A DNA stretch of 64,000 nt from sequence record PZ347775.1. One strand, 5' to 3'. Below, one piece after another: positions 251 to 11,152 of the stretch (its first letter is position 1; each line of letters opens with the position of its first letter). The translations under genes were made by a program, and so were the position numbers. A model generated the notes under the pieces. That model did no database searches. It worked only from the letters and a program-made list of their open reading frames with translations, and had not been told where the DNA came from. The DNA comes from a phage.

Positions 251-788
251 TTACTATTTCCAACAGTTTATTATTTTTAAGGTAGTTAGCCTTTTCTAGG
301 ACTTCAGAAGCATATTTAGAACCTGCTTTAACATTCCATCCCGAATTATAAGAGGATATTGCTTTTCTTATATCGCCCTTATGTATATTTAACCAATAAG
401 AAAGTTCAATGTACGCCCAGGAAGCTGAATTGGACCGTTTATTCAACATTCTTTTTATTTCGGCATCGGTCATATTATAACCAAGTTCCTTAACTCTTGC
501 ACGCATGGTTGGCAAATAATTTTGGAACATTCCGTAGGCATGATGTTTTGGTTTAGATTTTAAATTAACTCCGGCAGAGCTTTCTTGCCATAAAATGGCA
601 GCCATTATATGACCTAATCCGCTCTTGTGGATATTTTTGTGTGTTTTATATTTTCCATCCTTAGAAAATTGTTCCCCGAATTGATACGCGTAACGCATGT
701 TATCGAGTTGGACATTACTGAAAGTATGCTCGGAGCTATGTGCCATCATAGAAATGGCCAATAGACCAGCGAGTAGTGCTTTTCTCAT
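243..788 (-). CDS. secreted lytic transglycosylase-like protein (SLT domain); positional equivalent of T4 vs.1
   Basis: 181 aa; N-terminal signal peptide MRKALLAGLLAISMMA; SLT-type motif QESS..G....AYGMFQ. Confidence 0.7.
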   Translation of the reverse strand: MRKALLAGLLAISMMAHSSEHTFSNVQLDNMRYAYQFGEQFSKDGKYKTHKNIHKSGLGHIMAAILWQESSAGVNLKSKPKHHAYGMFQNYLPTMRARVKELGYNMTDAEIKRMLNKRSNSASWAYIELSYWLNIHKGDIRKAISSYNSGWNVKAGSKYASEVLEKANYLKNNKLLEIVND

Positions 789-8904: not shown

Positions 8905-9378
8905 TTATTTGATTTGTTTAGCAGACCAAATGCGGTCTTTAATAATTTTTTGGATGTCTTCAACATACTCAAGAGAGTGAACATGTGGATTATCTTTGAA
9001 ACTATAGGCACGGGCTAACTTTTGGCCTTCGGTTTTGATTACTAAAAGCTCTTTAAGGATAGCTTCATACTTAGCGATAATTCCTTTAACAATATTTTTT
9101 TCTTGTGTAGCTTTAGGATCTGCTTTAGGAGCAGGTTTACCCGAAGCCTTTGCAAAAGCAGCACCAGTAGCAACTAAACTTTTCCAGGCCATACTAACCG
9201 CATTTCCCGTAAATCCTTCGGCTTTCATATCACGAGCAAATTGGAATCGTGATTCATCGGAAGCATCTTTATAGGAATATTTACCCGCGGCAATGGCAGC
9301 TTTTGCAACAGCTTGAATTTCAGTGCTAGATGCTTCATTTAACACCGCTTCATTTAAAAATTGAGCATATGATTTCAT
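8905..9378 (-). CDS. hypothetical protein with capsid-targeting-like leader (candidate internal protein)
   Basis: N-terminus MKSYAQFLNEA resembles the MKTYQEFIxEA leader; Ala/Lys-rich; flanked by twin hairpins. Confidence 0.55.
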   Translation of the reverse strand: MKSYAQFLNEAVLNEASSTEIQAVAKAAIAAGKYSYKDASDESRFQFARDMKAEGFTGNAVSMAWKSLVATGAAFAKASGKPAPKADPKATQEKNIVKGIIAKYEAILKELLVIKTEGQKLARAYSFKDNPHVHSLEYVEDIQKIIKDRIWSAKQIK

Positions 9379-9420
9379 CTTATTTCCTGTTTTAATTCGT
9401 GGTTTTAATATACTTATTTA

Positions 9421-9451
9421 TACTAAAAAGCCCCAACCTTTCGGTCGGGGC
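9421..9451 (-). terminator. rho-independent terminator-like hairpin
   Basis: GCCCCAACC-TTTC-GGTCGGGGC followed by TTTTT on minus strand. Confidence 0.5.
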
Positions 9452-9455
9452 TAAG

Positions 9456-9760
9456 CCTTGCGGCAACCTTGTCGGGGTTCCACCTGCTAAGGCAAGTGTT
9501 TGTACGAAACGCCGGGATTCGAACCCGGTTATTAAGCAGTTGACGCTACTTAATATTTTTAAAAGGCCATATCTCGACCATATCCGAACGTTCCGTCAAA
9601 AACGCTACTCGGCTTACGGCAAAGATATTTCCTCGAATCGATAATTCTGTGCGCCGTTTCTGCTGTGATGTAAGGGGATATTAATAAATCATAAAGATTT
9701 ATTAAGACCAGTCCTTACACAGGGAACATCAGTCCGACGACTTACCGGTAGCGACCCGGT
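9456..9760 (-). ncRNA. candidate stable RNA with tRNA-like 3' domain (T4 species 1/2 RNA position)
   Basis: no ORF on minus strand; canonical T-arm CCGGG-UUCGAAU-CCCGG at 9528-9512 but no complete cloverleaf could be folded by hand. Confidence 0.3.
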
Positions 9761-9763
9761 TTC

Positions 9764-10114
9764 TTAATATTCTTTTAAAGCATCAATCTGTTCACGACGT
9801 TTACGCCATAAATCAATTGCTTCATACGCAGATTCAGCATTTCGAATTGGACGGCATTTATATAAAGACTCGTGATTTTGATATTGCGTAGATAACGTAA
9901 TTTTATCTAAAAGGTCTTTACGTTCAAAGTATTCGTAACCATCTAAGCCAAATGAACGATTTTTGAGAAATTGCCAATGACCATATTCGTTTTCGACATA
10001 AACATAATCCGCGTGTTGATAAAGCAAATTAATTACACGTTCAGAAATAACAGTGTCATTGTGATTAAAATAAAATGTTAAATCATGAACTACTAAATAA
10101 ACATTACCTTTCAT
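9764..10114 (-). CDS. hypothetical protein embedded in the tRNA region
   Basis: 116 aa ORF between tRNA-Arg and the stable-RNA candidate; no recognisable motif. Confidence 0.5.
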   Translation of the reverse strand: MKGNVYLVVHDLTFYFNHNDTVISERVINLLYQHADYVYVENEYGHWQFLKNRSFGLDGYEYFERKDLLDKITLSTQYQNHESLYKCRPIRNAESAYEAIDLWRKRREQIDALKEY

Positions 10115-10130: not shown

Positions 10131-10206
10131 TGGTCGAGGCAGTAGGGATCGAACCTACGACCTAGGACTTAGAAGGTCCTTGCTCTTCCTTCTGAGCTAT
10201 GCCCCG
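10131..10206 (-). tRNA. tRNA-Arg (anticodon UCU)
   Basis: hand-folded cloverleaf; anticodon loop CUUCUAA, T-loop UUCGAUC, 7-bp acceptor stem, CCA encoded. Confidence 0.85.
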
Positions 10207-10210
10207 TAAT

Positions 10211-10286
10211 TGGGGTGACCGATGGGAGTCGAACCCATGACTACGAGAATCACAATCTCGAGTTCTACCAACTGAACTACGGCCAC
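10211..10286 (-). tRNA. tRNA-His (anticodon GUG)
   Basis: anticodon loop UUGUGAU, discriminator C73 typical of tRNA-His, T-loop UUCGACU, CCA encoded. Confidence 0.75.
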
Positions 10287-10400
10287 ATTAATACCTACTC
10301 CAACAATCAAGATGTCTTCACACGAAATTAAGAGAAGAGTGATCAGTTCAACCCCGATAATCGCGTCAAGTAGATATTAATGTGACAGTTGTCACAAATT

Positions 10401-10475
10401 TGGCGGACGTGATAGGATTCGAACCTATAACCAATCGCTTAACAGGCGATCGCTCTGCCATTGAGCTACACATCC
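10401..10475 (-). tRNA. tRNA-Asn (anticodon GUU)
   Basis: anticodon loop CUGUUAA, D-stem GCUC/GAGC, T-loop UUCGAAU, discriminator G, CCA encoded. Confidence 0.8.
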
Positions 10476-10479
10476 AAAT

Positions 10480-10566
10480 TGGTGGGGAGTGATGGAGTCG
10501 AACCACCCGAGTCGCAATGACAATGGATTTACAGTCCACACCGCTACCTCTACGGGATAACTCCCC
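10480..10566 (-). tRNA. tRNA-Tyr (anticodon GUA)
   Basis: 87 nt with long variable arm; anticodon loop CUGUAAA; discriminator A; perfect 7-bp acceptor stem. Confidence 0.75.
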
Positions 10567-10579
10567 TTAATTCTTAATT

Positions 10580-10654
10580 TGGTGGCCCTGGGTGGAATTG
10601 AACCACCATCTGGCGATTATGAGTCGCTTGCTTGAACCTTCCAGCTACAGGGCC
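10580..10654 (-). tRNA. tRNA with anticodon CAU (Ile2-type as in T4, or Met)
   Basis: anticodon loop CUCAUAA; T-loop UUCAAUU; perfect acceptor stem; D-stem only 3 bp. Confidence 0.7.
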
Positions 10655-10655
10655 T

Positions 10656-10731
10656 TGGTGCTGATTGACGGAATCGAACCGCCGACCTTCTCATTACAAG
10701 TGAGTTGCTCTACCTACTGAGCTAAATCAGC
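10656..10731 (-). tRNA. tRNA-Thr (anticodon UGU)
   Basis: anticodon loop CUUGUAA; D-stem GCUC/GAGC; T-loop UUCGAUU; CCA encoded. Confidence 0.85.
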
Positions 10732-10736
10732 AAAAC

Positions 10737-10826
10737 TGGCGGAGGCGATAGGATTTGAACCTATGAGTCGCCGGAGCGACTGCCGGTTTTCAAGACCGGT
10801 GCATTAAACCACTCTGCCACGCCTCC
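10737..10826 (-). tRNA. tRNA-Ser (anticodon UGA)
   Basis: 90 nt, long variable arm GUCGC/GCGAC; anticodon loop CUUGAAA; CCA encoded. Confidence 0.85.
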
Positions 10827-10828
10827 AG

Positions 10829-10902
10829 TCTCCATACAAGGATTTGAACCTTGGACCTCCTGATCCCAAATCAGGCGCTCTACCAAACTGAGCTACACGG
10901 AG
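10829..10902 (-). tRNA. tRNA-Pro (anticodon UGG)
   Basis: anticodon loop UUUGGGA; T-loop UUCAAAU; CCA not encoded, abuts tRNA-Ser (T4-style Pro-Ser dimer). Confidence 0.8.
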
Positions 10903-10912
10903 TAAATTAAAT

Positions 10913-10986
<74 letters not shown>

Positions 10987-10991
10987 AAATT

Positions 10992-11078
10992 TGGTGCGAG
11001 AAGTGGGACTCGAACCCACAAGGAAATCATTCCGCAGCATTTTAAGTGCTGTGCCTTTACCAATTTGACCATTCTCGC
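10992..11078 (-). tRNA. tRNA-Leu (anticodon UAA)
   Basis: 87 nt with long variable arm; anticodon loop CUUAAAA; T-loop UUCGAGU. Confidence 0.85.
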
Positions 11079-11079
11079 G

Positions 11080-11152
11080 CTGGGAATAAAGGACTCGAAC
11101 CTTTGCATCCTGGAATCAAAATCCAGTGCCTTACCAACTTGGCTAATTCCCA
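11080..11152 (-). tRNA. tRNA-Gln (anticodon UUG)
   Basis: anticodon loop UUUUGAU; perfect acceptor stem UGGGAAU/AUUCCCA; discriminator G; CCA not encoded. Confidence 0.8.

Follow-up and report, generated by a model that had tools for sequence, protein, structure and literature searches.

The stable RNAs species 1 and 2 of T4-type phages were sequenced in the 1970s, and the locus described here raises the question of whether a related phage encodes the same RNAs and, if so, what kind of molecule they are. The window analysed is a 64,000-nucleotide stretch of phage DNA (sequence record PZ347775.1), and the locus occupies its positions 9421-9760. An earlier note, made from the letters of the sequence, had found a perfect tRNA T-arm there but no cloverleaf, and had suggested either a tRNA-derived stable RNA like those of T4 or a decayed tRNA. 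The source phage is a Tequatrovirus: a 901-base query around the locus gave 100% identity with Escherichia phage ECO07P3, and many other Tequatrovirus genomes were 96-98% identical to the same query. Two scans proposed in the earlier note were run. ARAGORN and Rfam at gathering thresholds called 11 minus-strand tRNAs at 10131-11152 (Gln, Leu, Gly, Pro, Ser, Thr, Met, Tyr, Asn, His and Arg), and nothing within 9421-9760, the tmRNA mode of ARAGORN included.

The alignment with T4 rnaC and rnaD, also proposed earlier, identified the locus. In the T4 record NC_000866, two misc_RNA features lie directly 3' of tRNA-Arg, first rnaD (species 2, 71053-71171) and then rnaC (species 1, 70908-71046), and positions 9380-9770 of the window align with T4 base for base over the whole stretch from rnaD to the terminator. 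By this alignment, the minus strand of 9421-9760 is assigned as direct orthologues of T4 rnaD and rnaC, followed by a trailer hairpin and one intrinsic terminator (Table 1); the suggestion that this is where T4 carries its species 1 and 2 RNAs was right. As in T4, rnaC is the last element of the tRNA cluster, lying between rnaD and the operon terminator. It differs from T4 rnaC at 3 of 137 positions (134/137 identical). Two of the differences preserve pairs of the 10-bp arm P3 by wobble (A-U versus G.U, and U.G versus U-A), the third lies inside a bulge, and all three are neutral for the fold. Position, strand, neighbours, acceptor stem, T-arm, hexaloops, trailer and terminator are alike in the two phages, whereas the operon of the window phage has a T2-type tRNA set and lacks segB. 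The rnaD genes lie in the same order (tRNA-Arg ... rnaD-rnaC) and have in common the 5' hairpin and the two strands of the closing stem, but T4 rnaD starts 2 nt after tRNA-Arg, whereas in the window a 116-aa ORF (9764..10114, phrog_3355) lies between the two and rnaD begins at the stop codon of this ORF. The apical hairpin of rnaD also differs, and T4 encodes ...GCGCACCA where the window has ...GCGCACAG.

The rnaD/rnaC pair is an already-known element of T4-type phages and an ordinary genome feature, present in every T4-type coliphage; a match to rnaD plus rnaC was obtained in 802 phage records. Neither RNA has an Rfam family. In most GenBank records the two are unannotated or are covered by spurious 'hypothetical proteins', and the record of Enterobacter phage PG7 has a false 95-nt tRNA-Met at this place. 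The ends given in Table 1 for rnaD and rnaC follow from homology to the T4 annotation and from tRNA rules; the T4 rnaC feature in GenBank begins one base before, and ends one base after, the interval C1 to U73 used here.

Table 1. Features of the rnaD-rnaC locus in the window, in order of transcription, with the basis of each assignment.
Feature	Position	Strand	Basis or remark
rnaD (species 2) orthologue, ~120 nt	9648..9767	-	T4 homology
rnaD 5' hairpin ACCGG-GUCGCUA-CCGGU	9744..9760	-	near-invariant in 11 homologues
rnaD-rnaC spacer GAAUUAU, 7 nt	9641..9647	-	ends in U(-1), just before inferred RNase P site
rnaC (species 1) orthologue, C1 to discriminator U73	9504..9640	-	137 nt (140 with CCA); T4 homology
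acceptor 5' strand CGAUUCG	9634..9640	-	pairs with 9505-9511
long arm P2, D-arm position	9564..9633	-	MFE and alifold; apical 5-bp stem bears hexaloop L2
hexaloop L2 UUGACG	9594..9599	-	exact complement of L3
A/U-rich single-stranded P2-P3 linker UUUAAAAA, 8 nt	9556..9563	-	fold, alignment
arm P3, 10 bp, anticodon-arm position, with hexaloop L3	9530..9555	-	9/10 pairs change on both sides
hexaloop L3 CGUCAA	9540..9545	-	complement of L2
T-arm CCGGG-UUCGAAU-CCCGG	9512..9528	-	covarying middle pair
acceptor 3' strand CGUUUCG and discriminator U (9504)	9504..9511	-	then ACA (9503..9501), not CCA
trailer hairpin CACUUGC-CUUA-GCAGGUG	9481..9498	-	fold; conserved in T4, JS98, ESCO47, IME341
intrinsic terminator AGCCCCGACC-GAAA-GGUUGGGGCU and UUUUU	9424..9452	-	terminator scan, fold, T4 conservation

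The minimum free energy fold of rnaC is a four-way junction (-50.1 kcal/mol, z = -3.8). In this fold the acceptor stem is followed by the 70-nt arm P2, which leaves the junction from position 8, and then by the 8-nt linker, P3, a single A and the T-arm. The T-arm reported earlier is real and lies on the minus strand exactly where it had been placed, and the 7-nt acceptor-like strand seen 3' of it is the CGUUUCG of the acceptor stem. What had not been found was a 5' acceptor strand. This strand is CGAUUCG, seven nucleotides that form a 7-bp stem of five Watson-Crick pairs and two U.U, and it was missed because the two U.U mismatches fall within it. The earlier view that no cloverleaf exists is likewise contradicted, by the four-way junction and by compensatory changes across 29 homologues. 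By its predicted fold, rnaC is an enlarged tRNA-shaped RNA with an expanded cloverleaf-like architecture.

For the homologues, phage genomes were searched with BLAST, and IMG/VR and metagenomes with pattern scans; the 29 distinct sequences obtained represent Tequatrovirus, Gaprivervirus, Karamvirus, Winklervirus, Gelderlandvirus, Moonvirus, Kanagawavirus, Marfavirus and PEi20-like phages. Standard pairs fill 92.4% of the alignment cells, compared with 35-46% after the 3' partners were slid by 1-3 columns. Seventeen pairs change on both sides, and the observed values were reached by 0/500 shuffles. The newly found acceptor stem is part of this pattern: its pair 3 is A-U in 11 and G-C in 18 of the 29 sequences, while pairs 4 and 5 are U.U in every one. 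The middle pair of the T-arm is G-C in 12 sequences and U-A in 15, all five pairs of the apical P2 stem covary, and so do all but one of the pairs in P3. The T-loop is non-canonical in some lineages (UGCAUGC, UGCAUC), so not all of the tRNA-like features are required.

A covariance model built from the 29 homologues, with the window sequence in its training set, gave one match in the window, at 9640..9501 with 159.8 bits. No second copy of rnaC was found in the window with this model, the next match scoring 10 bits (E = 1.6). Pattern scans without loop constraints were also run on larger collections. In IMG/VR, 8 and 1 extra loci were returned, all of them chance matches in G+C-rich coding sequence; in GTDB genomes there were 4 matches, all in G+C-rich organisms (64-71% G+C) and taken as chance; and in metagenomes 3 of 61 matches were real, each on a phage contig of a known type. 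From these scans the rnaC family appears confined to T4-like phages of Enterobacterales.

Homologues in other genera bear on the ends of rnaC. In Karamvirus, Winklervirus and Gelderlandvirus rnaC lies inside the tRNA arrays, for example between tRNA-Trp and tRNA-Gly, starting 5-6 nt downstream of the preceding tRNA's CCA and ending 7 nt before the next tRNA; the spacers on either side are tRNA-like, and rnaC therefore sits in a tRNA slot. Position -1 of the homologues is U or A. After the acceptor strand, Klebsiella Marfavirus-type phages have U-CCA-A, whereas the window and T4 have U-ACA-A. The U-CCA encoded in the former therefore places the discriminator at U9504, and this placement, with no CCA encoded here, implies trimming of the trailer and addition of CCA by the host nucleotidyltransferase. 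From C1 to U73 with CCA the RNA would be 140 nt long, in agreement with the ~140 nt that we take to be the length of species 1; a precursor and its processing by RNase P are likewise presumed by us from the literature of the 1970s-80s and from tRNA rules. The acceptor/T-arm helix of rnaC would let the host tRNA machinery make the RNA, with RNase P cutting before C9640, the ACAAAC... trailer being trimmed and CCA being added after U9504 to give a product of ~140 nt. It has been reported that CCA-less 3' ends of T4 tRNAs need the host nucleotidyltransferase (PMC11143913). In the product, the 7-bp acceptor stem with its two U.U would be stacked on a normal T-arm, and the long arm and the 10-bp arm would replace the D and anticodon arms.

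The two RNAs, rnaD and then rnaC, would form the 3' end of the minus-strand tRNA operon, with transcription stopping at 9452..9429. The hairpin at this position has 10 pairs, of which 7 are G-C, and is followed by UUUUU, as expected of an intrinsic terminator; this terminator ends the transcription unit of the tRNAs, rnaD and rnaC. The earlier note had described twin terminator hairpins flanking the segment. The one at 9452..9429, with its U-tract on the minus strand, stands, but the other, at 9760..9744, is the 5' hairpin of rnaD: it is followed by AAGUCG on the minus strand, the T-run is found on the plus strand only, as is its terminator-like score, and no gene precedes the hairpin there. 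The trailer hairpin is kept in JS98, ESCO47 and IME341, although these phages lack rnaC.

The fold of rnaD (MFE z = -3.5) consists of the 5' hairpin and a long irregular hairpin, and was compared among 11 distinct homologues. The 5' hairpin, with 5 bp and a 7-nt loop, has a mismatch at the closing pair in one of the 11. The closing stem is conserved, GUCGUCG pairing with CGGCG(C)AC, and the apical part of the long hairpin is replaceable and covarying. At least three unrelated versions of this central hairpin exist, with pairing kept in each. Ends like those of a tRNA were also looked for in rnaD. There is no convincing acceptor stem, and the CCA in the GCGC-A-CCA end of T4 rnaD is not conserved. 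The two RNAs occur apart from each other: JS98, CUA3, ESCO47 and IME341 have rnaD without rnaC, in which case rnaD is followed directly by the trailer hairpin and terminator, and Karamvirus, Gelderlandvirus and others have rnaC without rnaD. Judged by this distribution, rnaD and rnaC are separate modules.

The 3' end of rnaD (9660..9652) and the 3' acceptor strand of rnaC (9514..9506) are complementary over 9 nt at 8/9 positions. GAAACG, in this end of rnaD (9660..9655), was considered as the mature partner of the acceptor strand and was rejected because rnaC is kept in phages without rnaD; it is also ruled out by the covarying pairing of CGRUUCG with CGUUYCG. In the precursor, GAAACG may pair with the rnaC acceptor strand.

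These observations bear on the proposal that rnaC and rnaD are only cis-acting 3'-end modules of the tRNA operon, which shield the upstream tRNAs from 3' exonucleases or set the order in which the polycistronic transcript is processed, and accumulate only through their stability. Service of this kind is the main rival to a role for rnaC as a tRNA mimic. Both RNAs are always part of a tRNA cluster or stand last in it, and they have the operon terminator in common; the 8/9 complementarity just described could give an alternative pairing in a dimeric precursor. To our knowledge, T4 can lose the tRNA region and still grow on laboratory strains, and we know of no phenotype of such deletions on these hosts. 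However, rnaC of Karamvirus and Gelderlandvirus is found in mid-array, not at the 3' end, each of the two RNAs also occurs where the other is missing, and the hexaloops, U.U mismatches and arm lengths are conserved far beyond what a stable hairpin needs. We regard a purely cis-acting role as unlikely.

The two hexaloops of rnaC, L2 and L3, are exact Watson-Crick complements, and the complementarity ends at the loop boundaries. It is kept at 6/6 pairs in 29/29 sequences, and neither hexamer differs in sequences in which the rest of the long arm cannot be aligned. One of the six pairs varies, being A-U in 26 of the sequences and G-C in the other 3, all from a single clade. In this clade, the Marfavirus type, both loops change together (A to G with U to C) to give UUGGCG and CGCCAA, and further Marfavirus-type copies from IMG/VR and metagenomes agree with the joint change. 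The scans that yielded most of the homologues left both loops unconstrained, and only two loop combinations were seen in all scans. The joint change of the two hexaloops suggests an intramolecular kissing loop, and on this comparative evidence L2 and L3 probably pair with each other in rnaC.

Energy and geometry were considered as well. The natural pairs have predicted energies of -5.5 and -7.6 kcal/mol, compared with -0.4 kcal/mol for the cross pair CGCCAA and UUGACG. The other cross pair, CGUCAA and UUGGCG, has a G.U wobble and is nearly as stable as the natural pairs at -4.9 kcal/mol, and the energy argument for a kissing loop is therefore one-sided. P2 occurs in two types that cannot be aligned with each other, in both of which L2 keeps a distance of 30-31 nt from the junction on the 5' side and of 47-52 nt from L3; that the lengths are the same in the two types fits a geometric constraint. 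The path would run ~20 bp up P2, through a sharp turn into the apical stem, along the 6-bp loop-loop helix and down the 10-bp P3 back to the junction, so that L2-L3 pairing would close the non-tRNA half of rnaC into a compact kissing-loop module. Support for the contact consists of one compensatory event in one clade together with invariance, and the data also fit a dimer or separate partners for the two loops. No published account of L2-L3 pairing was found in the literature covered, outside of which the 1970s papers lie.

One form of the separate-partner idea is that rnaC is a trans-acting base-pairing RNA whose hexaloops are seeds for other molecules and not for each other, for example UGAC of L2 with GUCA in the anticodon loop of tRNA-Asp. 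Both loops are indeed invariant single-stranded hexamers on covarying stems, and GUC in L3 and GAC in L2 are anticodon-like and codon-like, respectively. A fixed external target would not predict that the loops change jointly, and the joint change, in which their mutual complementarity is kept, argues against one; no target has been identified. A trans-pairing function of this kind is highly improbable.

There is even less to recommend the view that the T-arm is left over from a tRNA gene that has decayed into a functionless pseudogene, which the earlier note had left as a possibility. Such a remnant would account for the failure of tRNA finders and Rfam models at threshold; a permissive Rfam scan of 9300-9900 returned noise, the best tRNA-clan match being tRNA-Sec at 17.3 bits versus a gathering score of 47. 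The element is, however, kept in at least eight genera, every helix shows compensatory changes, none of the three differences from T4 disturbs the fold, and the T4 orthologue is an abundant stable RNA that was detected by Northern blot (PMC9697503). Decay can be set aside, and the other possibility in the note, a tRNA-derived stable RNA as in T4, is supported in the form of the tRNA-shaped rnaC. It is scarcely credible that the region is protein-coding, by the largest ORF present (81 aa, GTG start, plus strand, 9399..9644) or by short minus-strand ORFs such as that of 24 aa at 9466..9392: hypothetical-protein features do lie under the match in many GenBank records and the 24-aa ORF matches phrog_28391 (E = 4e-13), but this ORF has a TTG start and extends across the terminator hairpin, neither Pfam nor PHROG gave a match for the 81-aa ORF, whose frame contains a stop in T4 and many close relatives, substitutions track base pairing and not codons, and the curated T4 record has RNAs here and not proteins. 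The earlier statement that 9456-9760 holds no convincing minus-strand ORF agrees with our finding no conserved ORF in the segment.

We put the probability of the account as a whole at roughly 80%, namely that the locus holds two known stable RNAs at the 3' end of the tRNA operon and that rnaC is tRNA-shaped; identity, secondary structure and covariation are shown by the comparison, to which processing by the host and contact of L2 with L3 within one molecule are added as inferred steps.

With regard to function, T4 RNAC and RNAD have been classed as late RNAs, with validation by Northern blot using an RNAC probe (PMC9697503), and their roles have been called unknown, also in the 2022 transcriptome study (PMC3014915; PMC9697503). 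Recent work points to a part for the tRNA locus of T-even phages in host range and anti-defence (PMC13096335, PMC12685909). It counters the Septu defence system, which cleaves tRNA-Tyr (PMC13096335), and when a T4-like phage was adapted to E. coli ECOR34 in three lines, a single SNP in rnaD appeared convergently in each of them, and virulence rose from 0.17 to 0.98 on the scale of that study (PMC12685909). Because of the anti-defence locus and the ECOR34 mutation in rnaD, our best guess, which is a weak one, is that rnaC could mimic a tRNA in stable form and engage a factor, of the host or the phage, by which tRNA acceptor ends are recognised, its role being host-specific or one of anti-defence. 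A more specific version, which we consider doubtful, is that rnaC might act as a decoy, sponge or adaptor for a tRNA 3'-end factor such as a host anti-phage tRNA nuclease or a tRNA-modifying toxin, and that rnaC and, separately, rnaD might be RNA-based counter-defence genes. The acceptor/T-arm helix with its CCA end would then be mounted on a rigid module locked by the kissing loop. If true, this would account for RNAs C and D, a puzzle for 50 years, and for the rnaD mutation that arose convergently on ECOR34. The comparative model, made up of the U.U acceptor stem, the Marfavirus-type CCA, the covarying hexaloops and the independent distribution of rnaC and rnaD, yields concrete mutants.

Compared with a canonical tRNA, rnaC has the acceptor stem and the T-arm with its T-loop. 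It lacks a D arm and a 5-bp anticodon stem with a 7-nt loop, in place of which stand arms of 70 nt and 26 nt that bear the hexaloops; at 137 nt it is longer than the 70-95 nt of a tRNA, it has a tandem U.U in the acceptor stem, and it is not detected by tRNA models. It shares with CCA-less tRNA genes such as T4 tRNA-Pro and tRNA-Ser a 7-bp acceptor stem stacked on a 5-bp T-arm with a UUCGAAU loop, the succession of discriminator and trailer, and a slot in tRNA arrays. The C4 antisense RNA of P1/P7 and the M3 RNA of phi80 are also small phage RNAs, which, as predicted for rnaC, obtain their 5' end from RNase P by means of a tRNA-like acceptor helix, and are likened to rnaC by description and not by sequence (PMC11143913). 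C4 RNA differs in that it pairs in antisense through its loops, whereas the loops of rnaC complement each other.

As predicted for rnaC, tmRNA joins a tRNA-like acceptor/T-arm domain to a larger non-tRNA domain with tertiary pairings and is matured by RNase P, but rnaC lacks both a reading frame for a tag and the alanine identity pair G3.U70, this position being A3-U70 or G3-C70. ARAGORN made no tmRNA call, and the sole Rfam tmRNA match, to the permuted form at 10.1 bits, was confined to the T-arm. For the proposed contact between the loops, the nearest parallels are the hexaloop kissing complexes of HIV TAR-TAR* and of ColE1 RNA I-RNA II. In these, as predicted for L2 and L3, hairpin loops of 6-7 nt are paired over their full length; they form between two molecules, whereas the loops of rnaC sit on neighbouring arms of one four-way junction.

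In the rnaD-only phages, namely JS98 (locus L005, 1500-1640) and the phages represented by loci L036 and L037, rnaC is missing exactly between two similar A-rich tails, which read ..GCGCACAGAA up to the point of absence and CACUUGCC.. beyond it. This arrangement suggests that rnaC has been gained or lost as a discrete module. Where rnaC is present next to rnaD its copies carry the acceptor strand CGUUUCG, and copies without an adjacent rnaD carry CGUUCCG. The two arms of an inverted repeat lie at the 3' end of rnaD (GAAACGGCG) and at the 3' acceptor strand of rnaC (CGGCGUUUC), and could give an alternative pairing in the dimeric precursor. The additional element of phage IME341 has a 3' end, CACCGGCGCAAC, that is similar to the rnaD 3' end, AAACGGCGCACC, and may be a truncated rnaD-like duplicate. 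The same 3' end was observed at a further locus, L013, likewise upstream of rnaD.

The rnaC T-loop was found to be UGCAUGC, UGCAUCC, UGCAUUC or UGCAUC, as opposed to UUCGAAU, in six loci from Winklervirus and related phages (L003, L007, L019, L021, L047 and L048), despite which the T-arm stem is preserved. Since the stem is kept with an altered loop, the canonical T-loop of rnaC is, to judge from these sequences, dispensable in some lineages. Within rnaC an octamer occurs twice; the end of the first copy is separated by 2 bases from loop L2 (AGUAGCGU-UU-UUGACG), and the last three bases of the second copy are also the first three of loop L3 (AGUAG-CGUCAA). In other genera this repeat is not conserved.

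In many Tequatrovirus records "hypothetical protein" CDSs cover rnaC and rnaD, and ATK47 alone, among the records listed, names rnaC as such. The "tRNA-Met" of Enterobacter phage PG7 is in fact the 3' two-thirds of an rnaC homologue (L002 1507-1646); the same label lies under the rnaC match in several further Enterobacter phage records. The reading frame of the 24-aa ORF crosses the terminator hairpin, and the profile that it matches, phrog_28391, is 54 aa long. This PHROG family probably consists of spurious ORF calls that cover the conserved 3' end of rnaC together with the trailer and the terminator.

Features in and around the stable RNA region
Feature	Position	Strand	Details
24-aa ORF, TTG start	window 9392-9466	-	phrog_28391, E = 4e-13
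"tRNA-Met" call, 95 nt	L002 1551-1645		Enterobacter phage PG7, NC_023561; ARAGORN and GenBank record
Inverted repeat, 9 nt	window 9652-9660 and 9506-9514		8/9 complementary
Extra element, ~65 nt	L037 about 434-498		phage IME341, MH051917; between tRNA-Arg and rnaD
Octamer AGUAGCGU, two copies in rnaC	window 9602-9609 and 9543-9550
tRNA genes, T2-type set	window 10131-11152	-
tRNA-Asn/tRNA-His spacer, 114 nt	window 10287-10400	-	without gene call
116-aa ORF	window 9764-10114	-	phrog_3355, function unknown

The tRNA set includes Met, Tyr, Asn and His, tRNA-Tyr passing narrowly (Rfam 30.2 bits, threshold 29), while tRNA-Ile and the segB homing endonuclease are absent from this region of the window. 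The tRNA-Asn/tRNA-His spacer contains a hairpin, UGUGACA-ACU-GUCACA, as well as the hexamer UUGACG, identical to rnaC loop L2 and expected by chance in ~3% of such spacers.

The 116-aa ORF, for which no Pfam match was found, has tRNA-Arg on one side and rnaD on the other, with the start of rnaD adjoining its stop codon. T4 differs in having no gene at this position, since its tRNA-Arg abuts rnaD. Two ORFs have been described in the T2L tRNA region (PMC2330249), and the 116-aa ORF may be the counterpart of one of them.
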